Shown here in pieces: positions 22,820 through 60,423 of a stretch of DNA of 64,000 nucleotides (positions are counted from its first letter, which is position 1; every line of letters starts with the position of its first letter). The stretch spans positions 2,095 to 66,094 of the forward strand of contig DOGZ01000012.1 in NCBI GenBank assembly GCA_003528115.1, read 5' to 3'. The notes beneath the pieces were generated by a model. The model was not told where the DNA came from and made no database searches. It worked only from the letters and a program-made list of their open reading frames with translations. This DNA is from Candidatus Omnitrophota bacterium (GTDB lineage: Bacteria; Omnitrophota; Gorgyraeia; Zapsychrales; Zapsychraceae). Position numbers and translations under genes: made by a program.

Positions 22820-23051
22820 CAATTACCTCTCTAATCCAAGCAAACGTTTAATTTCTTTAATTCCGCATCAATCGATCCGAGAATCTTGACTGAAGAAACA
22901 TACTGAGAAGCATTCTCATCGGCATAAACACAGTCGAACGGGCGATACCCCATAACCCCATCGCAAAACCGCCAATGACGGCGTAACGGAATTCTCGCTT
23001 GAGAAACGTTTTAAGAGGAGTTCAAGGGTAATCTTAAAATCCATCCAGTGC

Positions 23052-23804
23052 CTATCTGCCGTCCTTGATACCCGTCAAGGCTTTTATGATATCTATGGGG
23101 ATAGGGAACAGCGTCGTTGTGTTATTTTCCTTTCCGATCTCCACCAGAGTTTGGAGATATCTTAATTGCAGGGCCATGGGAGATTTCTGCATCATATCTG
23201 CCGCCAGACAAATTTTTTCCGCGGCCTGCGCCTCGCCTTCCGCGGCGATAATTTTGGCACGGCGCTCGCGTTCCGCCTCGGCCTGGCGCGCCATGGCCCG
23301 GCGTAAATCCTCGGAAATGTCCACATGCTTGACGGCCACATTGGACACTTTGATGCCCCAGGGATCCGTCTGTTTGTCCAGGACTTCCTGGAGTTTCTCA
23401 TTGATCTTTTCCCGTTGGGATAACAGGCCGTCCAATTCCATCTCGCCCAGGATGCTTCTCAAGGTCGTCTGAGACATCTGAGACGTGGCAAACACGTAAT
23501 CCTGGACCTCGATGATGGCCTTGATGGGATCCATGACCCTGAAATAGACGACCGCGTTCACTTTCGCCGAAACGTTGTCCCGGGTGATAATATCCTGCGG
23601 CGGGACATCCAGGGTGACCAGACGCAAAGAGACAACCACAATACGGTCGATCGGCCAAAGTGCCAGCACGATCCCGGGACCTTTTTCTTTGGGTAAAACA
23701 CGTCCCAGACGGAAAACAACCGCCCGCTCGTATTCATTCAAAATCCTGACGCTGTTCATGAGCCAGACAACAAAAATAATAAAGACAATTAACGGCAAAG
23801 ACAT
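23052..23804 (-). CDS. SPFH / Band-7 (stomatin-like) membrane protein
   Basis: An N-terminal TM helix is followed by the SPFH domain ([10 protein letters not shown]...). A C-terminal Ala/Glu-rich coiled-coil is present. Confidence 0.85.
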
Positions 23805-23816: not shown

Positions 23817-25295
23817 TCAAGAACCCTTTTCTACTTTTAACTTTAACCCTTTCACCTCAATCACCCGGATCTTGTCACCCGGACGAATCATCTCATCGCT
23901 CTGGGCGTTCCAGAGTTCCCCATGAATAAACACCGTTCCACTCTGCGCGGCGTTGATCTCGGTCCTGGCCTCTCCGCTTTCTCCGACGAGTCCCTTTTGT
24001 CCACCTAAAATACGCGCCCTTTGCGCGCGGATCACAGATTGCAAAAGGAATACCGATATCGCCGCCGTGGAGAATGAAACAGCCAAAATAACGGATTTCG
24101 AGACACGCATCACCGGATCCACGGAATCAAAAAGCAACAGAGACCCTAAAACCAAACTAACCAGTCCCCCCAGCGTTAAAAGACCGAACCCCGGGACAAA
24201 AGCCTCGGCAACCAGCAGGGCCATCCCCAAAATCATCAAGGCCAAACCGGCGTAATTCGTCGGCAACGTCTGCATACTGTAAAAAGCCAGTATAAGAAAA
24301 ATCGCCCCCAAGACGCCGGGGACGCCGAATCCGGGATGGGTGAGTTCAAACAAGAGACCGTAAAATCCCAGGATCATTAAAATATACGCGATGTTGGGAT
24401 TAGCCAGGATATTAAAAAACTTCTGACGCGCGTCCATCTCCTCTTTCTCAACTGAGGCGTCCTTCGTCTTTAAGACACGCGCCTCATCGCTATTCAACGT
24501 GATCACGCGGCCATCCAATTGACGCAACAGATCATCCAGATTATCCGCCAGGATTTCAACAACGCCTTTTTCCAGAGCCTCTTGCGCGGTAATCGAAGAA
24601 CTCCGGGTCACACTTTCCACCGCCCACTCGACATTACGATGTCTTTCTTTGGCAATGGCTTTAACAAAGGCCACGGTATCATTGAGAATCTTACGGCTCA
24701 TGGGATCCGCATCCTGCGGGAATTCTTCCTTCTCCAGGGGAGACTTTGGGGTCGGGCTATCTTGCGGGGCCTCTCCGTTTTTCGTCACGGAGGGAATTTC
24801 TTCTTCCTCCTTCAGGATTTTTGTCTCTTGACGCGACGCTTTCATTTCCTTAATCAACTCTTTTAATTCGTCCCAGTCACCCTCCCTGCGCGAAACGCCT
24901 TCCGCCATCTGAACAGGGTGCGCGGCGCCGATATTCGTCGAGGGCGCCATAGCCGCCACATGACTGGCATAAGTCAGAAAAACACCGGCCGAACCCGCCC
25001 TGGACCCGCTGGGGGCGATATACACCACAATCGGGACTTTGGAAGTCAGCATCTTTTTCACAATATGCCGGGTGGAATCCAGAAGACCGCCGGGGGTATC
25101 CAGCATAATAACCAGACATTGGGCCTTTGCCTCGTACGCCCTGTCAATGCCGTGGATGATATATTCCGCCGTGATGGGATTGATGCCGGCATCATTGAGC
25201 TGGATCACATGGATCTTTGGGGAAGGAGGGTTCGCGTAAGACGTTTGAATGAACGGCAGGATCAGGCATGTCGAGACGAACAAAATAAGTACCAC
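23817..25295 (-). CDS. nfeD: NfeD-family membrane-bound ClpP-class serine protease (long form with a C-terminal OB domain)
   Basis: DTPGGLLDS...VAAMAPSTNIGAAHPV is the ClpP-like block. An internal multi-TM region and a C-terminal OB fold follow. The gene pairs with the upstream SPFH gene. The start is set to the GTG at 25295, which gives a clean signal peptide, VVLILFVSTCLILPF. The alternative ATG at 25403 or the track ORF to 25583 would read through repeat copy 3. Confidence 0.75.
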   Translation of the reverse strand: MVLILFVSTCLILPFIQTSYANPPSPKIHVIQLNDAGINPITAEYIIHGIDRAYEAKAQCLVIMLDTPGGLLDSTRHIVKKMLTSKVPIVVYIAPSGSRAGSAGVFLTYASHVAAMAPSTNIGAAHPVQMAEGVSRREGDWDELKELIKEMKASRQETKILKEEEEIPSVTKNGEAPQDSPTPKSPLEKEEFPQDADPMSRKILNDTVAFVKAIAKERHRNVEWAVESVTRSSSITAQEALEKGVVEILADNLDDLLRQLDGRVITLNSDEARVLKTKDASVEKEEMDARQKFFNILANPNIAYILMILGFYGLLFELTHPGFGVPGVLGAIFLILAFYSMQTLPTNYAGLALMILGMALLVAEAFVPGFGLLTLGGLVSLVLGSLLLFDSVDPVMRVSKSVILAVSFSTAAISVFLLQSVIRAQRARILGGQKGLVGESGEARTEINAAQSGTVFIHGELWNAQSDEMIRPGDKIRVIEVKGLKLKVEKGS

Positions 25296-25311
25296 CCAGG
25301 GCCGAACCTTT

Positions 25312-25372
25312 ATTGACCTCCGCGCGAGTAATGGAATTGGACCATCTTGCGGACGGAGATCGAGATTCCCAT
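25312..25372 (-). repeat. Structured repeat, copy 3 (core only, inverted)
   Basis: The minus-strand sequence is atctcgatctccgtccgcaagatggtccaattccattactcgcgcggaggtcaataaagg. It matches the core of copies 1 and 2. The stem gatctccg/cggaggtc is kept through a C-to-T change that gives a G·U pair. Confidence 0.7.
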
Positions 25373-25397
25373 GCTTTGGTAATAAAATGTTTGCGTG

Positions 25398-25592
25398 TCC
25401 CATTATTTTTACGGAAGTGCTACCGTGTCCACTGAATAGTCGGACACGGTACAACACTGCGCCTTTTCTGAAAATATCTACTGACTTCCGCAAAAGCAAT
25501 GAAACACTATGGTAGTCAGTATCTCGACCTCCGTCCGCTTGGTGGTTCAATTCTATTATTTGTGCGGAGGTCAATAATAGCAATGAATTTGA
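25398..25592 (+). repeat. Structured intergenic repeat, copy 2 (compact form)
   Basis: Colinear with copy 1. Internal inverted segments are ttttacggaagt/acttccgcaaaa, actgcgcc/ggcgcagt, ctgact/agtcag and gacctccg/cggaggtc. Confidence 0.8.
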
Positions 25593-30633: not shown

Positions 30634-30828
30634 ACGCTGTCCTCTTGAATGATCCTTTCCATTTCTCTATTCAAACAATCACGTCCTCAACCTTCTTGAG
30701 TAGGATAAAATCTGAGACCCAATGGAGATAATGTGAAAAAAGGCAACAGCCGCTGCGACATAATGAATCTGAATCACCCAAAAAAGAAAAACACTGACGG
30801 CAGTGAGGAAATTTTATAGAATATATCT

Positions 30829-33800
30829 TTAATGATTTGTGTTGATTAATTCCAAAGACCCCTCTATCTCCTGATTTAATTCATCCATGTTCTTGGAGCG
30901 ATCAGATATTTTCTGTTCAAGAAGCTTGTTTTTCTCCTGCCCGGCCTGAATCTGTTTCTTATAATCTTCTGTTGCCTCCTCGAGTTTACTCGTCAAGGCG
31001 TTAAGCCTCTTAATTTCATTCTCTAAAACGAATTGACTCTCTTTGATTCTTTGATCCAGAGTTTGTCGCGTTTCCTGATTCAAATTTTCCAGTTTGGCGA
31101 TTTTTTCCTGAAGAGGAATTTTTGCCGCCTCTACTTTATCCGACATGCTCAATTGCGCCCTCTTAAGCTCATCGGTCAGCGACTTCTTTTCTCCTTCTAA
31201 CTTCTCTAACCGCTGATTAAGATCGGCGCGTTCCTTATTGAGATTCTCCATCAATTGATTTCTTTCTTTTAATAATCGCTCCATGTTATTCACGCGTTCC
31301 TGCAAAACAACGAAGTCATTAGCCAGATTTATCTTAACTTGATCTGTTATTAGTAATTTATGTTGAAGATCCTTCTCGGATTTCTCAATATGGCTAATCA
31401 GTGAATCTTTGCTGTTGATCATTTCCTGCATCTGACCAACTTTTTCTTCCGCGCTCTTCAGAGAAGCCTCCAGGGGCATCTTGGCCTTAGCGACCCTCAA
31501 CCCAACGTTGGATTCCAGATCGGCCTTTTGGGTTTTCAAATCTTGAAGCTCCATTTCGATATTTTGCTTCCCTTGTGTTAAAACCTCTATCTCTTGGGCA
31601 AGTTTACCTTTCTCGCCGGCTAAACCGGCTGATTGAACGTCTTTCTGTTTAACGAGTTCTGAAGTCTCATGCAACTGTTGTTCCAATACCGTGATCTTTT
31701 CCTGCAAAGAGACTTTGACCATTTCAACTTTATTCTGCCAAACAACTTTGATACTCTTCAATTCATCAGATAATTCTGCAATACGATCATTTAAAGAAGC
31801 CCTTTCCTTTTGTGTCATGAGCAATTCATTCTTTAATCCGGTTTTCTCATCTTCCAACTGCTTAAACAATTGTTCTTTTTGATTTAAGACATTAACACGG
31901 CTCTGAACATTCTGCTCTAATTTCAACATCGCCTCTATCAGTGGCTGTTTTGCCTCGGCGATCTGAGCCGCGACAGAGCCTTTGAGGCTGCGCCAATTTC
32001 CTTGCAATATCTCGGCATTCTTTAACAAATCGAAATTTTTTGCCTGAAGATAACTGATATCTCTCTTTAAAGTGTCATTAACACCTAAAATTTCTTTGAG
32101 CTTGTTTTCGCTTTCTAAAACCAATCCTTGAATACTCTGTTTTTCTTCCTCTAATTGGGTGACACTTTGCCGCAGAGGTTCCTGAACCTCTTTTAATTCA
32201 AGCAGCCTTTGGTCCTGAAGTTCCTTCATTTGATTTTCTAAGCCGGATATCTTCTGATTTAACGGTTGTCGCGTCTCTTCAACCTTCTGATTCATCAGGG
32301 CTTCGGTGTTCTTGAGTTTGTCCGTCAATGAAACGATTGTTTTCTCAAAAGCGCTCTTCTCTGATAAAACCGCGTTATAATTTTTGCTAAGGATGTCCTT
32401 GTCCCCTTTCAGAGTTTGAATAAGAGCTTCTTGATCTTGCGCTAACTGCCGACTTTTTTGAAGTTCCCCCGCGCTCATCTGAAGTGTTTTTTCTAAAAGC
32501 TTTTGAGCTTCTGTAATTTTCTGAGTTATTGACGCGCGCAGGTTTTCCAACGCCTCTTCTTTCTCTTTCAATTGATCTTCCACGGTAACTTTTTCCCCCT
32601 TCAAGGCAACAGACACCTTGATTAAGGCCTCTCGCTCTTTCATGAGATCTTCCGCGTAAACAATTTTTTCTTTTAAGAGGCCTTCAGAGGCTCTTAATTT
32701 TTCTTCGAGAGATTTTATCACGTCTTGAAGGGGAGCCTTGGCTTCTGAAATCTTCGACGGAATTTCTGACTCGACGGCCTTTGAGCGCTCATCCAAAGCC
32801 CTAATATTACTTTGTAAAACGTCTTTTTCTTGATTAAGCGCAACGATCTGTTGGGTCAGAGTCTCTTTGTCTTTAAAAACGCCCGCCATGATCTTTTCAT
32901 TCTCACGGATAACATTTTCCTGGGTTTTGAGAGTGGCATTAAGATTTTGTATTTGATCCTTCAAAGGAGCTTGCGCCTTGGCAATCTCATCAGGAATAGA
33001 ATCCTCAACTTGCTTTGCCTTGGCTTTCCAATCTTCAAAACTTTTTGAAAGACCGGAACTGTCTTGCTGAATTGCCGCATATTGCTTTGTCAAATCCTCA
33101 TACTGTCCCTGGGCATCTCGTAACTGGTCGGCTTGATTTTTAAGAAGGGCATCTTTTTCCGCCAAAACTGTTTTCAGGGAGGCGTTCTCATTCTCCAATG
33201 AGGATTGGGCTGCCGCGATCTTAGTTGGAACGGATTTTTGGAGTTCATCCAATTGTGCCGTCCGACGCGTAATTTCTTGCTGCAAATCTTTGTTCTGATT
33301 CATGGCCTTTTCTAAATCGCCTTTTAAGGCCACATGCTTGCGGCCTAATTCTCCGACAGATTTCTCTTTTGATTTTATCGTCCCCTGGACATTGCTTAAA
33401 TTTTCCCTAAGGGTCTTGAGCTCATTCTGCAAAGGATTTTTCGCCGCCTCTATCTGTTGAGGGATATTCGATTCTGTTTGAAGCAAGGCATTCTTTAACG
33501 TTATTTTGTCATTCTCACTTTTTTTCAATTCAAGACTCAATAATTCTTTGGCTTGAATAAGTTCATTGATGGCTGTCTGTTTTGCCTGAACAAGATTTTC
33601 CGTATCTAATAACCGCTTTTCCAGAAATCGGACACTTTTCTCTAACGGCGCTTTTTTCTCGGCAATATGAACTTGGATCGACGCCTGGGTTTCCTTAAGT
33701 TTGTTCACGGAATCCGAAAGTTCAAGACTCAAATCCTCGCGTTCCTTTTGGATTTTCTCCAAATCACCGGACAATAACGCCTTGGCTTGAGACAATTCCA

Positions 33801-36800
33801 CATTCTCGGACTCCTTATTTTTTAAAGCCGCCTCTAAATTATCGCGCTGCGCTTCCAATTGAGTTATCTTGTTTTGAAGCGTCGTCTTGTTTTGATCCAT
33901 TTGTTGAGAAGCCGAGATCTCCTGCTGACGCAACGTTTCTCTAACCAATTTCAGTTCTTGCGTAAGATCGGCATTCCGGCTTGTTCTGTCGTTGAGATCC
34001 TGGCTCAATTGGACAAGGCGCTTCTGAAAATCATTGATTTGAGATTCTTTTTGGGCAATCGATTTTCCTGTCTCAGATAATCGCGCGTTTAAATCTGCGA
34101 TCTCCTTTCTCAGCGGCGATTGAATATCTTCCACCTGTTTGGCAAACGCGTCCTTTGTCTGACTCAATTGTGTCTGAATCGCCTCAAATTTACCGGCCAA
34201 AGCCCCTTGTTCCTCGTTTAAGCTCTTCAAGGCGTTATCCGCCGTCTTCTTTTCATTGGTCACCTTGGTTAATTGGCCCTGTCTGATGAGAAGATCTTCT
34301 TCAAGGGCATTAACCTTCTCCTTTAACATCTTGATGCTCTCTTCTAAAGGTTTCTTTTCTTCAAGAATGCGCTCTTGAAAAGAATTTTTCCTTTCCACGA
34401 CTTCTTCCTGCAATAAATTCTTTTCATTGAATAACTTCGTCTGCTCTTCCTGAAGGGCCTTCATATCCTTATCCAGTTTTCTCATCGCGTGATCTTTTTC
34501 AACCAGGAGTTGCGTGGACTCATTAAATTTAGCTTCTAACGATTGCAATTGTTTCTTCAGCGTGTTTTCAGCGTCGGCAACTTTTTGAGGCAATAACTCC
34601 TCCGCAATTTTTATTTTTTGCTTTAACCCGGTCATCTCCGTTTCCAGGCCGGCCTTTTGATTTTGTAAATTAACTAAGGACGCATTAAGGGTGCCCTGTT
34701 GGCTGTTAAGATTATTGATAAAGGCCTCCCTCTCATGCATCAGACCTTCCGTCTCATTTAATTTTTCGACCAAAGCGGAATTTTCTTTCTCCAAAGGCAG
34801 TCTTACGGCATTAATCTTATTCTTGACAGAGGCCTCTAATTCTTGCAAGTGACCTTCTAAATCCTTAATCTTATTTTCCAAAGGCGCTTTAACCTGAAGC
34901 AATTTTTCCTGCACAGCCGATTCAGAGGCCTGAATTTTACTCTTATAAATCTCGAGTTCAGCCGCCAAGGATTCTTTCTCCTGTCCGTTTTGGCTGAGTT
35001 CCCGTGCAATATCATCTTTTTCTCCGGAAAGCCGCTTGAATTGAACATCCTTTTCTTTGATACTACTTTCCAGTAATTGCAAATTCTTTTCTAACTCAAC
35101 GACCTTCTGCGCCAGTTGGGTCCTTGCCTTTTCGACCATGCCTGGAATTTCTCCTTGAGTTTCTTTCAATTTCAGGGTTGCCTGATCTAAGGCCAGACTC
35201 AGCCGATTCTTTACCTCCTCACTTTGACTAAGCTGTTGCGCCAGGCTTTCCTTCGTCGTCGATAACTGTTTTAAACTTGTCTCTTTTTCCTTAATCCCGT
35301 TCCCCAGCTCTTCAAGCTGTTTCTTTAATCCCGCGATCTCTTCGGCCAGCGGGCCCTTCGCCTTCTCGATCATCTCGGGTACAGACCCTTCAGTCTCTTT
35401 TAACTTCGCGGTTAATTGATCGAGTTCAACACTCAATCGTTGCTTTTCTTCTTCACTTTGCCCAAGCGTTTTGACGATCCCAGCCTTCTCTTGCGTCAAT
35501 TGATTTAAACTCGTCTCTTTCTCCTTTATCCCGTTCCCCAGCTCTTCAAGCTGTTTCTTTAATCCCGCGATCTCTTCGGCCAACGGGCCCTTCGCCTTCT
35601 CGATCATCCCAGGCACCGACCCCTGCGTCTCTTTTAACTTTGCGGTTAATTGATCGAGTTGCGCGCTCAGACGTTGCTTTTCTTCTTCGCTTTGCCCAAG
35701 CGTTTTGACGATCTCGGCCTTCTCTTGCGTCAATTGATTTAAACTCGTCTCTTTCTCCTTAATCCCGTTCCCCAGCTCTTCAAGCTGTTTCTTTAATCCC
35801 GCGAGCTCTTCAACCAACGGGCCCTTTGCCTTCTCGATCATCCCAGGCACCGACCCCTGCGTCTCTTTTAACTTTGCGGTTGATTGATCGAGTTCAACAC
35901 GCAACTGTTTTTTTTCTTCCTCGCTCCGGTTAAGTTGTTTTACTATGTCCGTTTTTTCTTTCTCTAATACGCTCAATATTCCTTCTTTTTGCTTTATGTC
36001 TTCCTGTAAACTTTTAAGAGTTGCCTGTAAAACATTGACCTGCTCGTTCCAAGAAGATTGAGACTTTGCCAATTCATCCGCTGATTCAGCCTCACTCATT
36101 TTCAACTTTTCTTTTAAAAAAATAATCTCTTGTTTCAAAGACTCTTGTTGGCTCCTCCCCTCATCGAGTTGAGTGAGGACATCAGCATGTTCTTTAGTCA
36201 ATTTGGCTAAATTAGCCGAATACAATTGAACGTCGTTTTCCGAAACCTTTAACTTTTCCGAAAAGGCCTGAATTTTATTTTCCAGAGGGAGCTTCGCATC
36301 AGCCGATTTCTTTACAAACTCTTCCTCTTTAATCCTCAACGTCTCGCGTAGCCCGGCAATTTCCTGGTTGAGGGAAAGCCGCTGTTTTTCGCTTTGTTGA
36401 AATTGAAGCCTAACTGAATCTCTTTCTTGGGCCAGTTGATCCAGGCTGGAATTTCTACCGGCAATTTCGACATCAGTCTTTTTTAATTTGTTTTCCAAAT
36501 CCCTTAATTTTTCCTCCAACCCCTTCGTGAGCTGATCGATTTTATCCGCGGCCCCTGACTTCTCAATGCCCAATTCCTTCTGTAAAGAGGCGATCTGTTC
36601 AATGAACAATTTCTTTTCATATTCCAAATTACCCAACTGTTTTCTTAAACCTGCTTTTTCTTGATTAATCTTTTCTAACTCCTCGCTCTTCTGTTTCAGC
36701 TCTGTTTGAACGGCCTCCACCTTTTCTTCCAAACTTTTAAGACGTTCCGTCAAAGGAGCTCTTTCCTTAGCCAGACGCTCCGGCATCTCGGCCTCAATGC

Positions 36801-39800
36801 CCTTTAACCGTTCCGCTAGACTGATGAGTTCTTTATTTATGACTTCCCGATTTTGTTCACTTTGTTTTAACTGACCCGCAAGGGACTGCTTATCTTGATT
36901 GAGGGTGTTTAACTCATCCGCCTTGGCCAAAACTGTTTGTCCGGCGGTATTTAATTGCTCACGCAGATGCTTAATTTCATCCTCCAGAGACGTCTTCGCC
37001 TGGGCTAGTTGGACAGTAAAATTTTCTTCATTAGTTTTCACTTTTGCTTTCGCGCCCGCCAACTCTTTAGAAATAGTTTCTTTCTCCTGCTTTGCTTGAT
37101 CGATTTGTTTAAGAATCCCCTCGTTTTGTTTTAATAATTTGTTTAACCCATCCTCTTTTTCCTGGACATGACCTTCGGCCGCTTTTAATTGTTCTTCCAT
37201 TGATTGAATCTTGGTCTCTAATAAGATCTTGGTGGTCGCCAGTTGATCCGACCATTGCTTTTCTTTTAGGCCGGCGTCATTCTTTAGACTGTCCATTTCA
37301 GCGCGGAGCGTTTTCTTTTCCTCTTCGCGTTGAGCCAATTGAAAGCTGATATCATTCTTTTCCTTATTCAAATTGTCTAAAACGGTCTTCTGGTCTTTAA
37401 CCGCGGAGTCTGTTGCCGCCATTTTTTTTTCCAATACAACTATTTGTTCCTTCAGGGTCGCCTTCACCTTTGAAACCTTGTCAAAGCCCTCTGATTCCAT
37501 CGTCCTCAATTTCTCTTTTAGAACCGAAACCTCTTGCTTCAAGAATTCTTTTTCTTTACTCGATTGCGTAAGTTTTTCTGCCAAGAAAATCTTCTCTTGC
37601 TCCATCTGCCATGTGGCCGACTTCATTTTCTCAATATCTTTGTCTTTTAGAACCAATTGATCATTCAATTGCTTGATGCTGGCTTCTAAAGGCGATTGAA
37701 CTTCCTGGATCTTTTGAGAAAATGTCTTTTCTGACTCATCGGCTTGCTTTTTTAAAAGGTCGAATTCTTTGCTTAACGTCTCTTGCTGAGCCTTTAAATC
37801 ATTTAATTCAACTTCAATAAAACCCTTTTCGCTGCTCAACTTTATGGCCAAATCATTTTTCTGTTTGATCTCAGTCTCTTTTTGCTGAAGGCCGGCTTGC
37901 AGATCGCCTATCTTATGTTCCATGGAAGCCTGAAGCGTTTTCATATCTTCCTTGTACGTCTTCTGCGCCTCATCGAATTGAACTCTTAAAACACCGATCT
38001 CTTTTTCTAAAGGAGCTCTGGCTTTGTCGATCCTTTCGGCCGCTTCCCTTTCGGTTGCCTGAAGTTGTTCAACCAGAGAAACAATGCGTTTTTCCAAATC
38101 GGATTTTTCAGACTGCGCATTTTTGAGCCGCTTATCGGTTTCCTCTTTCTTGACGGTAACATCTTTGATCGCGGCAGCTCTTTCATTAACCACACGCTCT
38201 TTCTCAAGAAGCTGACTTTCCAATAACTTTATTTTAGTTTCCAAAGGCGCCCTGCCGCCTTGAACTTTTTCATTAACACCCTTTTCGGCAGCGAGGATCT
38301 TATTTTGTAACACCTCTATCTGAACCTGGAATGGTTTTCCCGCATCTACAATTTCTTGAGATACCCGGGACTCATTTTTAGATAGTTCTTCTTTTGTAAC
38401 GGCAACTTGCAGCTCCAACGCTTCTTTATCTTTGACAATTTTATTTAAATCCCCTCTTAGCATTTCTTGCTCATTCTGGAGTTGATCAATAAGAAAATCC
38501 TTTTCTTTGATCTGTGTCGCCGTTGCCTGAACTTCTGTCCGCAGATCTTCCACCTTCTTCAATAACGGGGCCTTCTGCAACTCGACCTCGGCCTCATATT
38601 TCTTTTTGGCTTCTTGAATCGTTTGTTCTAACGTGAGAATTTTATTCTCCAGCGGTGACTTGGCCGCGGCTATTTTCTGAGTCAATGAATCTTCAACGTT
38701 TTTCAATTTCTGGTTTAATTGGGATAAATCATCGTTCAATTGCCCCTGCTTCCGAGTACTGGCCAAAAGATCATGATCCAGCTTGGTTTTTTCATGAGCC
38801 AAAGACACGATTTGATTTTCCTTGTCCTGGATAATGTCTTCCATGTCCCTCAACTTCTTCTTTAAATCATCCATCTCACCTTTTAATGCCGACACCTTCA
38901 AAACAACATTCTGCTGATAGGAGTTCTCCGCGGACGACAATTTCTCTTCAAGTGTTTTTATTTTTTCCTTCAAAGGGGCTTGAACCTCAACGATTTTCTT
39001 TTCATGCAGGGATTCCGCTTCTTTAAGCTTGTTTTTAAGGCCTTCCAACTGTTCGGCCAGTTGTTGGCTTTCCTTTTTAGAAAGCGAGAGCTCTCCCGAC
39101 AAAGAATCTTTTTCGCGTTTCAAATCCGTAGCGGCTGACTTTTGGGCCTGAACAACCTCCTGCATACTTTTAATTTTTTCTTCAAGGTCATGAACGCCCC
39201 GCTTATAATCCGCATTCTTTTCCTCAAGTTTTACTCGCGTCACTTCATCGCTTTTCCGTAATTTATCTTCCAAGTCTTTGATTTTTACCTCAAGTGGCGC
39301 CTTACTTTCTTTCACCAATTCATCTAGGGATTGCTTAGTCCCCTGGACTTTTTCCTTAATAGAGAGAAGCTCGCCTTCCAACTGTTCTTTTTTAGACAAA
39401 GCCTCGGCCAAATCCCGATGAACAGTTTGAAACTTTAAACTCAACTTTCTAAACTCATTTTCCTTCTCAATAATGAGGTCTTCGGAAAACTGCAACTTTT
39501 TCTCCAGGGAAAATATCTCATTCTTCAGAGGGATTTTCGCTTCTTCCATTTTATGAAAAAGTTCTGTTTGAGAAGCCTTGACTCTTTCATCCACACGGAC
39601 TTCCATTTGATCTAATTCTTTTTTCAATGATTCAATCTTTTGCTCTAAAGGAACTCTGGCCTCATGTAATTGAAATTGGAGACTTAATTCATTATCTTTG
39701 AGCCTGTCCCGAAATATCTTTAAATCATTCTGTAAAGAAATCTTTCCCTGCCGAATCGTCATCACTTGGTTGATGAGAGATTTCTTCTGAAGGGTCAATT

Positions 39801-40176
39801 CCTTAATCTTGGCCTCGTTTTCAAAGGAATACACATCCGTATGCTGCAGTTTCCACTGAAGAGACATGATCTCTTTTTCAAGAGACTCCTTTTTCTTAAT
39901 CATCTTATTAACCTCTTGGCGTAAATAATCCTTCTCGCTGATGAGATTCTCAATTTCAATCTCTTTGCTCTTCAGGATGCCTCCAAGATCTTCAAGAGAA
40001 TCTTCCGTTGAGGCCACTTGGGCGATAAGAATATCCTGCGGTTCCTGCCGTCTTCCATCGCGGAATTGCCCGTTCCCAGTATCGACAGCCCCCCAACTCC
40101 TCCCTGGGGAGAACGGAAAAGATAATAAAAAAATAAAACCTAAACTGACATAAAATAAACGTTGACTATTTTTCAT
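30829..40176 (-). CDS. Giant (3115 aa) secreted coiled-coil repeat protein of unknown function
   Basis: Signal peptide MKNSQRLFYVSLGFIFLLSFPFSPGRSWGA. The remainder is Glu/Lys/Leu/Gln-rich heptad coiled coil, broken roughly every 75–110 aa by a motif such as AKAPLEvKIkdLEdKL. About 35 such modules are present. No enzymatic or anchoring motif was seen. Confidence 0.85.
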   Translation of the reverse strand: MKNSQRLFYVSLGFIFLLSFPFSPGRSWGAVDTGNGQFRDGRRQEPQDILIAQVASTEDSLEDLGGILKSKEIEIENLISEKDYLRQEVNKMIKKKESLEKEIMSLQWKLQHTDVYSFENEAKIKELTLQKKSLINQVMTIRQGKISLQNDLKIFRDRLKDNELSLQFQLHEARVPLEQKIESLKKELDQMEVRVDERVKASQTELFHKMEEAKIPLKNEIFSLEKKLQFSEDLIIEKENEFRKLSLKFQTVHRDLAEALSKKEQLEGELLSIKEKVQGTKQSLDELVKESKAPLEVKIKDLEDKLRKSDEVTRVKLEEKNADYKRGVHDLEEKIKSMQEVVQAQKSAATDLKREKDSLSGELSLSKKESQQLAEQLEGLKNKLKEAESLHEKKIVEVQAPLKEKIKTLEEKLSSAENSYQQNVVLKVSALKGEMDDLKKKLRDMEDIIQDKENQIVSLAHEKTKLDHDLLASTRKQGQLNDDLSQLNQKLKNVEDSLTQKIAAAKSPLENKILTLEQTIQEAKKKYEAEVELQKAPLLKKVEDLRTEVQATATQIKEKDFLIDQLQNEQEMLRGDLNKIVKDKEALELQVAVTKEELSKNESRVSQEIVDAGKPFQVQIEVLQNKILAAEKGVNEKVQGGRAPLETKIKLLESQLLEKERVVNERAAAIKDVTVKKEETDKRLKNAQSEKSDLEKRIVSLVEQLQATEREAAERIDKARAPLEKEIGVLRVQFDEAQKTYKEDMKTLQASMEHKIGDLQAGLQQKETEIKQKNDLAIKLSSEKGFIEVELNDLKAQQETLSKEFDLLKKQADESEKTFSQKIQEVQSPLEASIKQLNDQLVLKDKDIEKMKSATWQMEQEKIFLAEKLTQSSKEKEFLKQEVSVLKEKLRTMESEGFDKVSKVKATLKEQIVVLEKKMAATDSAVKDQKTVLDNLNKEKNDISFQLAQREEEKKTLRAEMDSLKNDAGLKEKQWSDQLATTKILLETKIQSMEEQLKAAEGHVQEKEDGLNKLLKQNEGILKQIDQAKQEKETISKELAGAKAKVKTNEENFTVQLAQAKTSLEDEIKHLREQLNTAGQTVLAKADELNTLNQDKQSLAGQLKQSEQNREVINKELISLAERLKGIEAEMPERLAKERAPLTERLKSLEEKVEAVQTELKQKSEELEKINQEKAGLRKQLGNLEYEKKLFIEQIASLQKELGIEKSGAADKIDQLTKGLEEKLRDLENKLKKTDVEIAGRNSSLDQLAQERDSVRLQFQQSEKQRLSLNQEIAGLRETLRIKEEEFVKKSADAKLPLENKIQAFSEKLKVSENDVQLYSANLAKLTKEHADVLTQLDEGRSQQESLKQEIIFLKEKLKMSEAESADELAKSQSSWNEQVNVLQATLKSLQEDIKQKEGILSVLEKEKTDIVKQLNRSEEEKKQLRVELDQSTAKLKETQGSVPGMIEKAKGPLVEELAGLKKQLEELGNGIKEKETSLNQLTQEKAEIVKTLGQSEEEKQRLSAQLDQLTAKLKETQGSVPGMIEKAKGPLAEEIAGLKKQLEELGNGIKEKETSLNQLTQEKAGIVKTLGQSEEEKQRLSVELDQLTAKLKETEGSVPEMIEKAKGPLAEEIAGLKKQLEELGNGIKEKETSLKQLSTTKESLAQQLSQSEEVKNRLSLALDQATLKLKETQGEIPGMVEKARTQLAQKVVELEKNLQLLESSIKEKDVQFKRLSGEKDDIARELSQNGQEKESLAAELEIYKSKIQASESAVQEKLLQVKAPLENKIKDLEGHLQELEASVKNKINAVRLPLEKENSALVEKLNETEGLMHEREAFINNLNSQQGTLNASLVNLQNQKAGLETEMTGLKQKIKIAEELLPQKVADAENTLKKQLQSLEAKFNESTQLLVEKDHAMRKLDKDMKALQEEQTKLFNEKNLLQEEVVERKNSFQERILEEKKPLEESIKMLKEKVNALEEDLLIRQGQLTKVTNEKKTADNALKSLNEEQGALAGKFEAIQTQLSQTKDAFAKQVEDIQSPLRKEIADLNARLSETGKSIAQKESQINDFQKRLVQLSQDLNDRTSRNADLTQELKLVRETLRQQEISASQQMDQNKTTLQNKITQLEAQRDNLEAALKNKESENVELSQAKALLSGDLEKIQKEREDLSLELSDSVNKLKETQASIQVHIAEKKAPLEKSVRFLEKRLLDTENLVQAKQTAINELIQAKELLSLELKKSENDKITLKNALLQTESNIPQQIEAAKNPLQNELKTLRENLSNVQGTIKSKEKSVGELGRKHVALKGDLEKAMNQNKDLQQEITRRTAQLDELQKSVPTKIAAAQSSLENENASLKTVLAEKDALLKNQADQLRDAQGQYEDLTKQYAAIQQDSSGLSKSFEDWKAKAKQVEDSIPDEIAKAQAPLKDQIQNLNATLKTQENVIRENEKIMAGVFKDKETLTQQIVALNQEKDVLQSNIRALDERSKAVESEIPSKISEAKAPLQDVIKSLEEKLRASEGLLKEKIVYAEDLMKEREALIKVSVALKGEKVTVEDQLKEKEEALENLRASITQKITEAQKLLEKTLQMSAGELQKSRQLAQDQEALIQTLKGDKDILSKNYNAVLSEKSAFEKTIVSLTDKLKNTEALMNQKVEETRQPLNQKISGLENQMKELQDQRLLELKEVQEPLRQSVTQLEEEKQSIQGLVLESENKLKEILGVNDTLKRDISYLQAKNFDLLKNAEILQGNWRSLKGSVAAQIAEAKQPLIEAMLKLEQNVQSRVNVLNQKEQLFKQLEDEKTGLKNELLMTQKERASLNDRIAELSDELKSIKVVWQNKVEMVKVSLQEKITVLEQQLHETSELVKQKDVQSAGLAGEKGKLAQEIEVLTQGKQNIEMELQDLKTQKADLESNVGLRVAKAKMPLEASLKSAEEKVGQMQEMINSKDSLISHIEKSEKDLQHKLLITDQVKINLANDFVVLQERVNNMERLLKERNQLMENLNKERADLNQRLEKLEGEKKSLTDELKRAQLSMSDKVEAAKIPLQEKIAKLENLNQETRQTLDQRIKESQFVLENEIKRLNALTSKLEEATEDYKKQIQAGQEKNKLLEQKISDRSKNMDELNQEIEGSLELINTNH
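35283..35985. repeat. Three near-identical 234-bp tandem repeats inside the giant gene (78-aa modules)
   Basis: The units begin at about 35293, 35527 and 35761. Only a handful of substitutions separate them. Each encodes GSVPGMIEKAKGPLxEExAGLKKQLEELGNGIKEKETSLNQLTQEKAxIVKTLGQSEEEKQRLSxxLDQLTAKLKETQ. Confidence 0.85.
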
Positions 40177-40297
40177 CGATCTTCTGATTCCCTTCCATGA
40201 GATTTGTCATAATTTCCAGTTTTTCCTTCAAATGAAGAATCGTAGTGCGCACGTTGGCCAATTGTCGCTGCTGATCTTCTTCCTCATTGATTTTCAT
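40166..40297 (-). CDS. Possible 43-aa upstream ORF translationally coupled to the giant gene
   Basis: MKINEEEDQQRQLANVRTTILHLKEKLEIMTNLMEGNQKIDEK. Its TAG stop overlaps the giant gene start in the sequence ATGAAAAATAG. Confidence 0.2.
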   Translation of the reverse strand: MKINEEEDQQRQLANVRTTILHLKEKLEIMTNLMEGNQKIDEK

Positions 40298-40550
40298 GAC
40301 TTTTAACTTATCCACATCGGTTTTAAGCGCTGTTGAAAAAATAACGTCTCTTGACCTACGCAGTAGTAAAGAACGCGCATGGGGAGAAAGACAACCAAAA
40401 TGTTTTTTTACTTACGGAAAGCAGTAAGATAAGGATTCGTTTTAACATGAACCGTCTCTCAGGATTAAAATGATCTGTGGGTGATCAAAGAAGAATTAGA
40501 AATTAACTGACTTTCGCGCGAGTAGCACAAAATTAGTCTTGAGAAAGTAA

Positions 40551-41690
40551 TCACTCTTGATATCCATCAACCGGGATATTCCCACTCAAACCAAACGTCT
40601 TCTTAAAATCTTTCGGAATTTCAATCTGTTCCTCATCATCATACTTTTCTTTTATATTAAGAATCTCCGGCAAAAGATCAAAAAAACAATCGACCAAACG
40701 AGGGTCAAAATGAAAGCCGCGACCTTTCTTAATTTCATCCAATGTTTCGACTACCGTCCAGGCATTTTTATACGGCCGCTTGTTCATCAGGGCATCAAAA
40801 ACATCACATAATCCGCAAATCCTTCCCACAAGCGGGATCTCCTCTCCCTGGAGATTATGCGGATATCCCGTCCCGTCCCATTTTTCATGATGCGTTAAAG
40901 CGATTTCCCCCGCCAAATGTAAGAATTTAGAATCGCTCCCGGAGAGTAACTCAGCCCCAATCGTCGTGTGTGTCTTCATGACTTCCCACTCTTCGGGCGA
41001 TAACTTGCCGGGCTTGAGCAAAATGCTATCAGGGATACCAATCTTCCCGATATCATGAAGAGGACTAGCGGCCAAGACCATTTCTAAATCCTCCACACTA
41101 AAACCGACGGCCTTAGCGATACACGCGGAATAATGACTCATCCGGCTCGTATGTAAACCCGTTTCCAAATCGCGAAATTCAACCGCTCGAGACAAACGTT
41201 CAATGACATCGAGCTGAGTGGCGTATAAAGCTTGTGTCCGTTCCTGCACTTTCTGCTCCAGGATTTTATTTTGGTCACGAATTTCATTATGGAGCATCCG
41301 GACCTCTATGAGATTGCTGATACGAAGAAGAACTTCAACCCTGTCGTAGGGTTTATGGAGAAAGTCCTTGGCTCCGGCTTCTAAGGCATTAAAACGGATT
41401 TCCGGGCTTTCTTCGCCGGAAATAACAAGAATGGGGAGGTACCCATCCTCTTCAATAAATTTCAATTGTTCCATTACCTTAAAGCCATCCATGTAGGGCA
41501 TGTTTAAATCCAGCACAAGGAGATCCGGGGCCATACGCTCATAAAGGGCTCTGACTTCGCGGGAATCGGAGATGGAGGTAATATGACGATACCCCCCTTT
41601 GCGGAGAATCTCTTCTAAAAGACGAATACTCATGACCTGATCATCGACAATAAGAATTTTCGCCGATGCAAATCTGCTGTCTAAGCTCAT
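40551..41690 (-). CDS. Response regulator with HD-GYP c-di-GMP phosphodiesterase domain (RpfG-like)
   Basis: The REC domain shows ILIVDDQ...DLLVLDLNMP. The HD-GYP domain shows HDIGK...HHEKWDGTGYP. Confidence 0.85.
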   Translation of the reverse strand: MSLDSRFASAKILIVDDQVMSIRLLEEILRKGGYRHITSISDSREVRALYERMAPDLLVLDLNMPYMDGFKVMEQLKFIEEDGYLPILVISGEESPEIRFNALEAGAKDFLHKPYDRVEVLLRISNLIEVRMLHNEIRDQNKILEQKVQERTQALYATQLDVIERLSRAVEFRDLETGLHTSRMSHYSACIAKAVGFSVEDLEMVLAASPLHDIGKIGIPDSILLKPGKLSPEEWEVMKTHTTIGAELLSGSDSKFLHLAGEIALTHHEKWDGTGYPHNLQGEEIPLVGRICGLCDVFDALMNKRPYKNAWTVVETLDEIKKGRGFHFDPRLVDCFFDLLPEILNIKEKYDDEEQIEIPKDFKKTFGLSGNIPVDGYQE

Positions 41691-41847: not shown

Positions 41848-42510
41848 TCACGGGGCCTCAGATAAAACAAATTTTACCGGGATGCGAACCCTGGAAGAAA
41901 TTTTTCTGGCTCCAATGTGGGCCGCGGCAAATTCCCACTTTCTGACAACTCTTAACGCAAAGTCATCCAGAATTTTATGTCCAGAACTTTTTTCAACAGA
42001 AACCTCACTGGCGCGCCCATCTTTTTTTACATTGACCTGAAGATAAACCGTTCCCTCCCATCCCAACTTCCTCGCCAATTTCGGATAGACCGGGGGCGGA
42101 TTTATAATGGGCACTGGCTTAGTTACGGAGAGTGCCCCTTGAAAGGATTTACTTGAAACGGTTTTGGAAGAACTTCTTCTTGCAATGGATTGAGCAACTG
42201 AAGCTGTCTTGGTGGTGTTATTTTCCGTGTGCGCATTTTGAAGATAATGGCTGGAGACAACGCTTTTGAATACCTCTTCCCCTTGAACTTTCTGCTGAAA
42301 GTGTTTTGTATTCCCGATCTCTTGTTCCTTTCCCGGGGGATGTTCCGCTTCGACAATCTCAAATTCAATGCTATTGGGGGCTTCCCTGACGGCAAATATC
42401 GGTGCGGGTTGGCTTAAAAAGCCGATCTTAAAGATAAGCAAATGGATGAAAATCGAGAATAAGATAAACCGATAGAACCCGTTTGAACACTCCCTAAAGG
42501 AAGGAGTCAT
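41848..42510 (-). CDS. tonB: TonB-family energy transducer (C-terminal TonB domain)
   Basis: An N-terminal TM helix and a Pro-rich linker (PPPVYP) precede the C-terminal domain, GWEGTVYLQVNVKKDGRASEVSVEKSSGHKILDDFALRVVRKWEF. The start is set at the internal Met to avoid overlap with fur. Confidence 0.7.
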   Translation of the reverse strand: MTPSFRECSNGFYRFILFSIFIHLLIFKIGFLSQPAPIFAVREAPNSIEFEIVEAEHPPGKEQEIGNTKHFQQKVQGEEVFKSVVSSHYLQNAHTENNTTKTASVAQSIARRSSSKTVSSKSFQGALSVTKPVPIINPPPVYPKLARKLGWEGTVYLQVNVKKDGRASEVSVEKSSGHKILDDFALRVVRKWEFAAAHIGARKISSRVRIPVKFVLSEAP

Positions 42511-42962
42511 GGTTTGGGGGACGAAGGACCGCATTTTTTACATAAACCAAAAATTTCCAGCCGATGTTTTTTAGGATGGAAGCCAGAGGCTTCAGATAAT
42601 TTGTGACTCAGTCTTTTTATGTTTTTATCAAAGACTTCAAAATGATATCCGCAATCCGTACAAATAAAATGAGCGTGGTATTCTCGTCCCATCTTTCGCT
42701 CAAACCTCTTGACGCCATCGTCAAAATCCACCTCTTCGGCCAAACCGCTGGAGACAATGAGTTTGAGAGTGCGATAAACCGTTGTAGCTCCGATTTCCGG
42801 ATGTTTCTTTCTGACGATTTGAAAAAGGTCATCAACGCTGACATGCCTAGTAGTCGATAAGAACACCGTGATAATATAATCACGCTTTTGGGAATGTTTG
42901 AGACCTTTCTTGGAAATGTGTCGATCGAATATTTCTAATTCTTTGACGGTATCGTTTGTCAT
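42507..42962 (-). CDS. fur: Fur-family metalloregulator
   Basis: HAHFICTDCG...GLCKKCG is the Fur metal-site pattern. A winged-helix N-terminus is present. Confidence 0.85.
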   Translation of the reverse strand: MTNDTVKELEIFDRHISKKGLKHSQKRDYIITVFLSTTRHVSVDDLFQIVRKKHPEIGATTVYRTLKLIVSSGLAEEVDFDDGVKRFERKMGREYHAHFICTDCGYHFEVFDKNIKRLSHKLSEASGFHPKKHRLEIFGLCKKCGPSSPKP

Positions 42963-43117
42963 GTCGGCTTTAACGGAATCCCGTGGAAGGTGATTTTGGT
43001 GAAATGCTAACAGCCCCTATTCCCTCTGTCAATCCTAAATTCTAGCCCATCTAGGACTTATTCTGTATTTGATACCAAACCCCATTGACATCAATCCCTC
43101 CAGAAAAACATTCTTTC

Positions 43118-44923
43118 TTAAATAAAATATTCGGGATCAAGGGCAATGGCTTTTCTTAATACATCGATAATTTTTGTGACGGCAGTCTGAGTATTCTCCT
43201 TTTGAGACAAAACCAAATCGATCTGATCTATCGGGAAACGATTTTCCCCCACATTCACGACAATAGTTTTATTGGGTTGATTAAGGGATTTAAGCATACC
43301 TAATTCATATTCATCAATATCAGAAATACTTGTGATAAAGACAAGCCCTGCGTCTGTCAAGATATGAGACATATTCCCCAATTGTTGAATATGCTGCATT
43401 TTATTCAAAGTCCGATCATTCGAACTGGCCTCCGTTAATGATAATTCATTTGAAATTCCCAGGAAATAGGTAAATTTCCCCAAACCGAAAATGGACGCCT
43501 CCAATGCCTTGGCGATCTCTTTTTTACCGGTATCCGGATCCCCTATAATGACAATAAGCGCTGATTTATGCTGATACTTCAAGGCACGCTTAAGCGGCGT
43601 GATATCACTTCTGACCCAATTAAAATCCCTGGATTTTACATATTGACTTAAAATGGATTCTTGCTCAAAGACAGGTGACAGAATAATGCCTCCGCCGGCA
43701 ATTTCATAGTTATCAACGATCACAAACCGTCCAGTTTCTGCAATATGATTAATGTCATCAAAAGCAACGGGTTTGAGCGTTTCCAGAATGCACTCCGCCA
43801 CATCATGACGATCAACCTGAGACTTATTACCGATCGAAGATAACTCGGAGGCGTCGAGCACACTAATTATATTCACTAATTCCACAGGCACCTGCTGAGT
43901 GGTAATCTTCAATTTATAATCTTTGCCCTTGATCAACGGTTCTTTGCTCATCCAAAAGATGTTGGCTTTAAATTTAGTCGTGACATGCGGCCCTTGTTCC
44001 CCTTTTTTGCACATAATCTCCCCGGGACGAATGTAAATTTGCGTCTGGAACGTAACACCCGTACTCTGACCCGCATAAGCCTCAGTTGCCTTTTCCACAT
44101 TAAAACCTTCAATCGTTTCAATACGGGAAGTCTTGTACGACGGGAAAAAAACAACCTCTTCTCCCACGCTCACAGTGCCGGATTCAATACGACCGGCCAT
44201 GATTCTTCTTTCATCACCTTCCGCGGTAAATTTATAAATATCCTGGATCGGAAATCTTAATGGCCTGGCGTAATTAGGGGCCGCTTTAGAAAAGTTATCC
44301 AAGGCCTCCATCAAAAAAGCCTCCTGATACCAAGGCATTTGAGGTGAAATCGAAATGATATTGTCCCCCTCCCGAGCGGCGATAGGGATAAAACTTTTTG
44401 GCTTGATGTTGATCTCTTCTAAAAAAGCCGAATATTCAGATTTGATATTTTCAAAAACCTCCTGGCTATAATCAACCATATCCATCTTGTTCACACAGAC
44501 CATGAAATTCTTTATCCCTAAAAAAGACATCATGTACCCATGCCGCTTGGAGTTTTCCCGTATCCCTTCTTTGGCATCTATGACAAGAACCGCCGCCTCA
44601 GCACGGGCAGCACCGCTGATCATATTTTTTAAGAATTCAATATGCCCCGGGGCATCGATAATAATATAGTCGCGTTTCTTCGATTTAAAAAAACACCGCG
44701 CTGTATCAATGGTGATCCCTTGGGACTGTTCATCTTTTAAGGCGTCCAGTAAAAAGGCGTATTCAAAAGGCTTGGCGTTTCGAAGGCAATTAGCTTTCAC
44801 AGCCTCCAGTTTCCCTTCCGGCAAGGAACCCGTGTCGGCCAACAACCGACCCACTAAAGTACTTTTTCCGTGGTCCACATGACCGACAATAACGACATTC
44901 ATCTGTTCTCTAAGTAGGCTCAT
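43118..44923 (-). CDS. cysN: Sulfate adenylyltransferase large subunit CysN fused to an APS-kinase-like domain with a degenerate P-loop
   Basis: The GTPase shows [16 protein letters not shown] and NKMD. The C-terminal roughly 170 aa resemble CysC, but the P-loop reads IGDPDTGKK rather than GLSGSGKST. Confidence 0.85.
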
Positions 44924-56573: not shown

Positions 56574-56587
56574 TAAAATTCTATTAT

Positions 56588-60359: not shown

Positions 60360-60423
60360 TTAAAAAAGCAATTGTTAAGAAGAAGTGATGGATTCATAAA
60401 TGTTTTTTTTGTGCCTCTACCCC

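Follow-up and report, generated by a model that had tools for sequence, protein, structure and literature searches.

Among the coiled-coil proteins of the bacterial cell envelope, CrvA of Vibrio, Lpp, Omp-alpha of Thermotoga, MreC and EnvC are exported by the Sec pathway and serve a mechanical role, with lengths of 60-500 amino acids (aa) and with anchoring or globular domains. The present work concerns a 9.3-kb gene of a Candidatus Omnitrophota bacterium, located in a stretch of 64,000 nucleotides of contig DOGZ01000012.1 which was analysed as a whole (the window). Its product, hereafter the giant, would share the export and the mechanical role of these proteins, but at 3115 residues is far longer and is nearly pure coiled coil. 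No sequence relationship of the giant to such CrvA-type periplasmic coiled coils was found in Pfam and PDB searches. Giant genes of the Archaeovorin and dockerin types have been described from the same phylum, and they encode multi-domain proteins, many of at least 10 thousand amino acids (kaa) and up to ~147 kaa, which carry enzymatic, lectin or dockerin modules along with transmembrane helices (10.1101/2023.11.21.568195; 10.64898/2026.06.07.730766). Large size, secretion (predicted for the giant) and neighbours related to cyclic di-GMP (c-di-GMP) are common to both, the neighbours being PilZ genes there and an HD-GYP gene here. At 3.1 kaa, with a single hydrophobic segment and without any Pfam domain, the giant falls outside that class. 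The word "coiled" is absent from both papers on the Omnitrophota giant genes (10.1101/2023.11.21.568195; 10.64898/2026.06.07.730766), and a literature search returned no description of the family, of its 78-residue repeat or of its architecture.

The reading proposed here, to which an even chance is given, is that the giant represents a lineage-specific Omnitrophota family of Sec-exported, envelope-associated structural fibres. It is built on the gene itself, the anatomy of its repeats, their helicity, a charge signature of parallel register, the distribution of the family and its synteny.

Organisation and integrity of the repeat array

A single open reading frame (ORF) of 9.3 kb and 3115 aa, as reported in the first-pass annotation of this DNA, was confirmed (Table 1). 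Leucine, glutamate, lysine and glutamine make up 50% of the residues of the protein, which contains 41 prolines and no cysteine. The reported "xPL" motif (x-A-K-x-P-L-E-x-x-I-x-x-L-E-x-x-L) is present in 28 copies, and consecutive copies are separated by 78, 29, 107 (= 29 + 78), 156 or 312 aa; when the long gaps are cut every 78 aa, degenerate motifs appear in perfect register, having lost the proline alone. The array thereby resolves into 41 modules, with 29 of the standard 78 aa, eight of 29 aa, two of 71 aa and single modules of 40 and 120 aa; all lengths but one equal 7n+1. The motif-opened modules of the first-pass annotation are thus retained, whereas its count of about 35 modules of 75-110 aa gives way to 41 quantised ones, those of 107 aa being 29 + 78. 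Removal of exactly 49 residues (7 heptads) from the 78-aa unit gives the 29-aa unit, and removal of one heptad gives that of 71 aa; such heptad-quantised insertions and deletions are consistent with a continuous coiled coil. A hidden Markov model of the 78-aa unit covers residues 45-3109 free of gaps, and residue identity at lag 78 amounts to 23.3% as against 8.8 +/- 0.5% in shuffled sequences (z ~30), with more peaks at 156, 234 and 312.

At the DNA level, only one tandem repeat was detected, comprising 2.8 copies of 234 nt. It marks a recent duplication of a unit, and only there could the assembly have miscounted the copies. Units outside it are old duplicates, which share ~22-35% protein identity with one another and have diverged in DNA. 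This near-identical stretch of 650 nt favours the view that the gene is a product of faulty assembly, or an open frame without coding function in repetitive DNA. That view is extremely improbable: the DNA of the remaining array is diverged, an open frame of 3115 codons at 42% GC is beyond chance, and amino-acid conservation, column by column, indicates selection acting on the protein. Furthermore, independent assemblies hold homologues of 2823, 3913, 4119, 4143 and 4400 aa, in which ends and synteny are conserved. Because the DNA-level repeat is single and homologues of similar size occur in independent assemblies, the ORF appears to be no obvious assembly concatenation. The gene is real and under selection.

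Helical structure and chain packing

Column scoring of the unit was based on an alignment of 26 in-register units. Hydrophobic residues occupy columns 6, 10, 13, 17, (20), 24, 31, 34, 41, 45, (48), 55, 59, 62, 66, (69), 73 and 77, so that 18 of the 22 core columns are hydrophobic, 15 of them in at least 70% of units and columns 20, 48 and 69 in ~35-40%. Conserved lysines are found at core columns 3, 27, 38 and 52, preceded by glutamate in three of the four. The a/d heptad pattern is unbroken but for one additional (skip) residue between columns 73 and 77. The joint between units has the form E-[SG]-S-[VI]-P-x-x-I-x-x-A-K-x-P-L, with a second, less conserved proline nine residues ahead of the PL proline. 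The hydrophobic spectrum of the whole protein shows a single sharp peak at 3.545 aa (78/22; power 16.6), with no periodicity at 3.5 aa and a power of just 0.16 at 3.667 aa. AlphaFold2 modelled three units (residues 1449-1682) as one helix over residues 3-228, at a predicted local distance difference test score (pLDDT) of 82.9 and with no fold-back; the run was of a monomer, with a 7-row alignment of other non-overlapping internal triplets and a predicted template modelling score (pTM) of 0.32. The giant thus belongs to the left-handed alpha-helical coiled coils, having an a/d seam on a long predicted helix. The earlier description of almost nothing but heptad coiled coil is upheld by the a/d columns, the periodicity and the helix model.

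Charged pairs between positions g and e'(+5) are attractive in 60 cases and repulsive in 14, and other i-to-i+5 classes are far weaker (f-to-d 12:6, b-to-g 27:29, e-to-c 25:33). Strong enrichment of opposite charges at g-to-e' only, a classical mark of parallel, in-register chains, supports that arrangement here. The core consists of L/I/K/V at a and L at d. In coiled-coil statistics, such core composition and lysine at a favour dimers, and the rod would most likely be two-stranded. In an analysis of charge stagger for myosin-like lateral assembly, the only signals were the period of 78 aa and local pairs at i+3/i+4. A rise of 0.1485 nm per residue gives a computed extended length of 11.6 nm per unit and ~458 nm for the mature chain.

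Spectrin, M-protein and apolipoprotein analogies had been drawn in the first-pass annotation from the regularly spaced prolines. A chain that folds back, either as spectrin-like bundles or hairpins or as an apolipoprotein-like lipid belt, would form monomeric beads on a string, and such a fold could use those prolines together with the glycine and asparagine enriched at columns 21-22 and 71. The sum of 78 + 29 (107 aa) is also near the length of a spectrin repeat, a three-helix fold-back of ~106 aa. Nevertheless, this alternative is very unlikely. The AlphaFold2 helix runs continuously over three modules, and the length variants differ by whole heptads (exactly 1 or 7), which suits an extended coil and mismatches a bundle. 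The hydrophobic seam is narrow, with the a/d columns alone hydrophobic, so that the broad face of an exchangeable apolipoprotein is not seen and its 11/3 periodicity is absent. The g-to-e' pairing points to parallel packing between chains, and spectrin or apolipoprotein matches are absent from the Pfam results. The spectrin and apolipoprotein analogies are accordingly abandoned. Membership of the Gram-positive M-protein-like fibrils also fails, as neither an LPXTG anchor nor a C-terminal hydrophobic segment is present in the giant.

Termini, predicted export and domain content

The N-terminus of the giant reads MKNSQR-LFYVSLGFIFLLSFPFS-PGRSWG/AVD, with K2 and R6 in the n-region, an h-region over residues 7-23 and a c-region ending SWG/A. 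It is the sole hydrophobic segment of the protein (Kyte-Doolittle 19-residue mean of 1.59 at residue 7; next best 0.83), and similar signal-peptide-like N-termini are found in homologues and in every protein encoded by the partner gene described below. The signal peptide of the first-pass annotation is in agreement with this hydropathy and these equivalents, from which we infer that the giant is exported by Sec and cleaved. The signal peptide is followed by a conserved coiled-coil head, which is devoid of the PL motif and carries K-[ED]-I-x-I-E-x-L-x-x-E-K-D and L-x-L-Q-K-K-x-L-x-x-Q. The C-terminal tail conforms to a family motif, [LI]-x-x-E-[IVL]-x-x-[AS]-[LM]-[ED]-L-[IVL], with 2-5 residues then remaining to the C-terminus.

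Searches of the giant for Walker A, LPXTG, lipobox, RTX and PEP motifs and for a second hydrophobic segment were negative. Pfam gave nothing beyond its cut-off, merely sub-threshold generic coiled-coil matches, and a PDB sequence search with the unit and partner profiles gave only generic coiled coils (best E 1e-6). The absence of catalytic, anchoring and SMC-head domains noted in the first-pass annotation accordingly holds in the motif, Pfam and NCBIfam searches. A trimeric autotransporter adhesin was rejected as well, as there is no Pfam match to a YadA-type barrel and the C-terminus is a short conserved tail of helix type.

Public databases name three homologues otherwise, P0001 as "Exonuclease SbcC" and P0003 and P0006 as "chromosome segregation ATPase", and the NCBIfam model SMC_prok_B matches at E 1e-64, as would be expected of a cytoplasmic SMC/Rad50/SbcC-type chromosome protein. 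The alignment extends over arm positions 232-449 alone, and its 219 bits fall well short of the cut-off of 567. Terminal ATPase domains, which the first-pass annotation had set against its own reading, were looked for, and neither a Walker A motif ([AG]xxxxGK[ST]) anywhere in the protein nor a Pfam SMC_N match was found. No hinge was detected and the array is uninterrupted mid-protein; since the giant is without any cysteine, a Rad50 zinc hook (CxxC) is likewise excluded. Antiparallel cytoplasmic arms disagree with the g-to-e' signature, which fits parallel packing, and with an N-terminus that is of Sec type by hydropathy. Identity with this class, contradicted above all by the missing head domains, is scarcely credible. 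The SMC-type labels on the homologues are wrong and are coiled-coil artefacts, because heads are absent and SMC models fit the arm region only.

Family and distribution

The giant itself is absent from a collection of 5.8 billion proteins, in which eight relatives (P0001-P0008) of 1738-4143 aa were found at 22-24% identity. Against 1.84 billion representatives, the unit profile returned 18, 98 and 1180 matches at E <= 1e-30, 1e-10 and 1e-3, respectively; among 147 newly returned top-match proteins, ~30 (many of them fragments) carry PL motifs at the density of the family. Judged from these searches, the family is rare and its members range over 1.7-4.4 kaa. Members have in common a signal-peptide-like N-terminus, a head of ~125 aa, the repeat unit with PL spacings of 78, 71, 29, 107, 149 and 156 aa, and the C-terminal tail. 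The giant is a member by the same features (signal peptide, head, PL units of 78, 71 and 29 aa, and an E-[IV]-x-x-A-L-[ED]-L-[IL] tail). No positional orthology of units was detected between members, which BLAST aligns at ~22-23% identity in many registers. Apart from the head and the tail, the one individually conserved part is the SVRFLEKRLL unit, a special 71-aa unit with the family motif PLE-x-S-[VI]-RFLEKRLL-x-x-EN.

All members that can be placed taxonomically belong to Omnitrophota. Loci L015 and L017 are from Omnitrophota metagenome-assembled genomes (MAGs), proteins that cluster with P0007 and with the partner protein bear the name Candidatus Omnitrophica, and the contig of P0002 encodes an NrdD 84% identical to a Candidatus Omnitrophica protein. 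Many Candidatus Omnitrophota MAGs encode a CysN with 63-75% identity to that of the window.

Giants that share the same syntenic slot vary from 1889 to 4400 aa. Furthermore, the slot downstream of CysN is filled by a secreted coiled-coil relative of ~820 aa in three Omnitrophota loci (L014, L024 and L025), which ends in a different conserved C-terminus, LLELKNHPxIKQADS, and may be a short ancestor or a paralogue of the giant family. Given these orthologue lengths and the ~820-aa relatives, the array has grown and shrunk by whole units.

Proteins P0005-P0008 form a second subgroup of ~1.9-2.3 kaa with a cysteine-containing C-terminus, CGV.MEELQKPW.DKI; at the P0005 locus (L006/L007), a 650-aa protein without known family lies upstream, and TPR and PG_binding_1 proteins lie downstream. 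Many profile matches (P0045, P0052, P0061 and others; E 1e-33 to 1e-12) are long proteins of 1.3-3.8 kaa whose N-termini are hydrophobic but which are devoid of PL motifs, so that giant coiled coils of the secreted type may occur more widely than the PL family.

Genomic neighbourhood and partner gene

In the window, the gene order is CysD-CysN-Fur-TonB-response regulator with HD-GYP domain (RR-HD-GYP)-remnant of the partner-giant-GHMP kinase-epimerase-citrate synthase. Comparable orders are found elsewhere: CysN-ExbB-ExbD-TonB-SurE-RR-HD-GYP-partner-giant in L015, CysN-SurE-RR-HD-GYP-giant (1889 aa)-citrate synthase in L017, CysN-Fur-ExbBD-...-SurE-partner-giant (4143 aa) in L001 and FeoAB-ExbBD-TonB-SurE-partner-giant (4400 aa) in L088. 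The giant thus evidently sits in an inherited syntenic block. The window is otherwise ordinary chromosomal DNA, with genes for sulfate assimilation, citrate synthase, transhydrogenase, AcrAB-TolC and related functions. Among the neighbours to which the first-pass annotation had drawn attention, the HD-GYP regulator is conserved in L015 and L017, the closest syntenic loci, but the heptose kinase and the epimerase are not adjacent to the giant there or in L001. The regulator retains the receiver aspartate (LDLNMP), the HD motif at residue 212 and HHEKWDGTGYP at residues 267-277, and is likely a c-di-GMP phosphodiesterase; in L017 its stop codon overlaps the ATG of the giant by 4 nt. A more distant branch (P0002, P0003 and P0004) adjoins a Glycos_transf_4 gene, and the contig of P0003 stops after that region. 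AAA_22, HD_5 and polysaccharide-export genes also lie near P0002 and P0004, with Wza, Wzc, Wzy_C and Wzt genes near P0002.

Seven loci (L001, L002, L004, L008, L015, L088 and L089) possess a gene of 243-308 codons immediately 5' of the giant, here termed the partner, to which the first-pass annotation made no reference. In six of these loci, its stop or last codons overlap or abut the start of the giant, and in L004 the called genes are 94 nt apart. The partner protein consists of a signal peptide, a strongly conserved domain bearing the invariant motif GEIINVN..Y.IAFTD.S...L..GD.V, a proline-rich disordered linker and a C-terminal helix of ~108 aa. An AlphaFold2 model assigns residues 29-107 to a beta domain (a six-stranded beta-barrel weakly resembling domains of FlgT and MreC), residues 111-180 to disorder and residues 183-290 to the helix. 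The partner is rarer than the giant, with six matches in the 5.8 billion proteins and three loci in a metagenome scan, one of them already known.

The window holds no coupled, intact upstream partner of the kind found elsewhere in the family, and the partner is absent from L017 as well. Its last 49 codons survive, matching the partner of L015 in tblastn at 53% identity along 36 aa (E 4e-5), and the conserved beta-barrel domain is missing; the 9.3-kb ORF of the giant is intact. Upstream of these codons, an orphan ORF of 30 codons has the appearance of a partner signal peptide that outlasted an internal deletion. By these traces, the partner is internally deleted in the window, with its remnant at 40166-40448.

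Directly 3' of the P0004 and P0003 giants (L004 15239-18037 and L008 7693-10328) lies a cassette resembling those for ribosomally synthesised and post-translationally modified peptides, which comprises Transglut_core3, PqqD, a gene of no known family, radical SAM/SPASM and a 49-aa ORF, followed by ABC transporter genes.

Proposed role and cellular location

In the proposed scheme, the signal peptide would be removed, or kept as an anchor, leaving ~3085 residues. The mature chain would run as a single extended alpha-helical coiled coil whose strands, most likely two, are parallel and in register, making a rod of 41 segments, the standard 78-aa segment contributing 11 heptads plus one skip over ~11.6 nm. 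The skip would be located in the short joint V/I-P-x-x-I-x-x-A-K-x-P-L, flanked by two helix-N-cap prolines, and the outcome would be an underwound rod with 3.545 residues per core position, regular hinges and a fully extended length of ~0.46 micrometres. Such a rod would serve as a fibre of the cell envelope, within the periplasm or reaching the surface, with the N-terminal head and the C-terminal tail as putative sites of attachment or nucleation. In most relatives with a readable locus, the rod would dock to the co-translated secreted partner, and production of the giant may be governed by the adjacent RR-HD-GYP (c-di-GMP) module. Changes in length would arise by gain or loss of whole units. 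The periplasmic or cell-surface fibre, tether or ruler suggested in the first-pass annotation is still the most plausible type of function.

Most Omnitrophota cells measure ~0.2 micrometres (PMC10066038), about half the computed rod of 458 nm. A rod ~2 times the width of the cell would therefore run round the cell inside the periplasm or extend outside. The latter possibility, an extracellular fibre that crosses the outer membrane (e.g. by a type II secretion system (T2SS) or a pilus-like route) and acts as a host or prey adhesin, tether or matrix scaffold under c-di-GMP-controlled display, is judged somewhat unlikely. It gains from a rod that exceeds the typical cell, from the adjacent HD-GYP gene, from the Glycos_transf_4, AAA_22 and HD_5 genes beside P0002 and P0004 and the Wza, Wzc, Wzy_C and Wzt genes by P0002, and from type II secretion pseudopilin genes less than 10 kb from P0004. 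In addition, Omnitrophota giant secreted proteins have been reported by T2SS-like loci and PilZ genes (10.1101/2023.11.21.568195), and host dependence has been suggested for many members of the phylum (PMC10066038). On the other hand, an outer-membrane translocation signal, beta-barrel, RTX motif, C-terminal domain (CTD) signal or adhesive tip domain was not found in the giant, secretion-system genes are not present in the 64-kb window, and the beta-barrel of the partner is closest, weakly, to the periplasmic scaffold proteins FlgT and MreC.

A bolder proposal is that of an exported nanobacterial cytoskeleton, acting as a periplasmic girdle in which the number of units sets or senses the circumference, or as a c-di-GMP-controlled host tether. 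Here the beta-barrel of the partner and the conserved C-terminal tail would be the two anchoring ends, with a hinge each 11.6 nm. This proposal is considered decidedly doubtful.

Several points weigh against the envelope fibre as proposed above. The signal peptide was called by eye and hydropathy. Signals for peptidoglycan binding, the outer membrane or a secretion system were not found, so that a periplasmic and an extracellular location would fit equally. The AlphaFold2 model, a low-pTM monomer from an internal-repeat alignment, is uninformative on oligomer state, and a two-stranded coil might be broken, not just kinked, by the two prolines of each joint. That an HD-GYP gene is adjacent may reflect no more than synteny inherited in a single lineage. 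The giant is intact although the partner is deleted here and absent in L017, so that either the partner can be dispensed with or another part of the genome supplies a replacement. The range of lengths found in one slot argues against a universal fixed-length ruler, a function which the first-pass annotation had included among its suggestions.

Additional features of the window

The features located in this analysis are collected in Table 1. The end of the window (55497-64000) forms a low-GC patch, with a GC fraction of 0.33-0.40 as compared with 0.51-0.54 at 10-20 kb. The eukaryote-like, effector-type genes of this patch hint at a host-associated lifestyle.

Table 1. Positions of the giant gene, its parts and other features; coordinates refer to the window unless a locus is named.
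Feature	Position	Strand	Basis or remarks
Giant gene	30829..40176	-	ATG start, 3115 codons plus stop; homologues P0001-P0008 and P0032-P0046
Predicted Sec signal peptide	40090..40176	-	Residues 1-29; hydropathy and equivalent N-termini in homologues
Conserved N-terminal coiled-coil head	39664..40044	-	Residues ~45-171; aligned with P0001, P0033, P0042, L015, L017 and P0035
PL-motif module array	31027..39663	-	Residues 172-3050; units of 78, 71, 29/40 and 120 aa
Twelve consecutive 78-aa units, unbroken	34897..37704	-	Residues 825-1760; include the three units modelled with AlphaFold2
Special 71-aa unit, motif PLEKSVRFLEKRLLDTENL	33448..33660	-	Residues 2173-2243; conserved in P0001, P0032, L017 and P0046
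Conserved C-terminal tail NMDELNQEIEGSLELINTNH	30832..30891	-	C-termini of 10 family members compared
Tandem repeat, sole one at DNA level	35270..35919		234 nt x 2.8 copies, 91% matches
Terminator-like hairpin, then T-run	30792..30805	-	24 nt past the stop codon of the giant; consensus match only
Partner remnant, last 49 codons	40166..40315	-	Stop overlaps the ATG of the giant; reading frames
Orphan 30-codon ORF MLKRILILLLSV..., signal-peptide-like	40356..40448	-	Suggested by sequence
Response regulator with HD-GYP domain	40551..41690	-	Same gene directly upstream in L015 and L017
TonB, Fur, CysN	41848..44923	-	Syntenic anchors, context only; same block by members in L001, L015, L017 and L088
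~820-aa slot proteins	L014 13942-16536; L024 13987-16518; L025 8140-10671		3-4 PL motifs
Fic-domain protein	21770-22822	-	Followed by SPFH/Band-7 and NfeD pair
SPFH/Band-7 and NfeD pair	23052-23804 and 23817-25583	-	
510-aa protein	53561-55093	-	Weak TPR and coiled-coil matches only; adjoins DegP-like protease (52055-53548)
IS256/Mutator-type transposase	55497-56558	+	In low-GC patch
SET-domain protein	56588-57085	-	In low-GC patch
Protochlamydia "Pom"-type outer-membrane protein	58953-60359	-	In low-GC patch
Ankyrin-repeat protein	62699-63724	-	In low-GC patch

Significance and comparison with known systems

Omnitrophota are uncultured and probably host-dependent, and the construction of their cells is almost uncharted. 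A lineage-specific, chromosomally stable and syntenic family is a candidate envelope skeleton or attachment fibre, and provides a defined target for cryo-electron tomography and metaproteomics. The very regular natural 78/22 array could also serve as a model for how coils accommodate skips and prolines; combining a proline-flanked skip joint, core Lys-Glu pairs and heptad-quantised lengths, it could be put to use as a modular nanoscale rod. With respect to annotation, the "SbcC" and "chromosome segregation ATPase" labels on public homologues are erroneous.

Crescentin and other coiled-coil-rich proteins (CCRPs), and Scy/FilP of Streptomyces, in which a long super-repeat departs from the heptad, are likewise near-pure coiled coils with long-period repeats on the heptad, register breaks and a presumed structural role, and homologues of the giant give faint or weak matches to the Pfam models Rod_CreS and Filament. 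These proteins are, however, cytoplasmic, without a signal peptide and with no detectable homology to the giant, which is set apart by its 78-residue skip unit, joint prolines, a length 2-3 times greater and a secreted partner gene. M proteins and the stalks of YadA, BadA and NadA are, like the predicted giant, exported parallel coiled coils with block repeats, heptad irregularities and length variation through repeat number; in contrast, the giant has no LPXTG, C-terminal beta-barrel anchor or head domain of that kind, and its host is a diderm bacterium of the PVC group. The myosin II rod and tropomyosin resemble the giant in their parallel two-stranded coil (predicted for the giant), along which skip residues and destabilising core residues recur regularly, but are eukaryotic and cytoplasmic, and the giant has far denser skips (one per 78 aa) and no detected 28-residue charge stagger. 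Arms of SMC/Rad50/SbcC proteins have a similar coiled-coil composition, which leads to the sub-threshold profile matches; these arms are antiparallel and intramolecular, whereas the giant combines a signature of parallel register with a signal peptide and is without heads, hinge or zinc hook.

The known kind to which the giant belongs is therefore the long bacterial coiled-coil fibre. New within it are the predicted Sec export, the size of 3-4 kaa, the 78/22 super-repeat of skip plus proline, the partner gene and a spread restricted to Omnitrophota.

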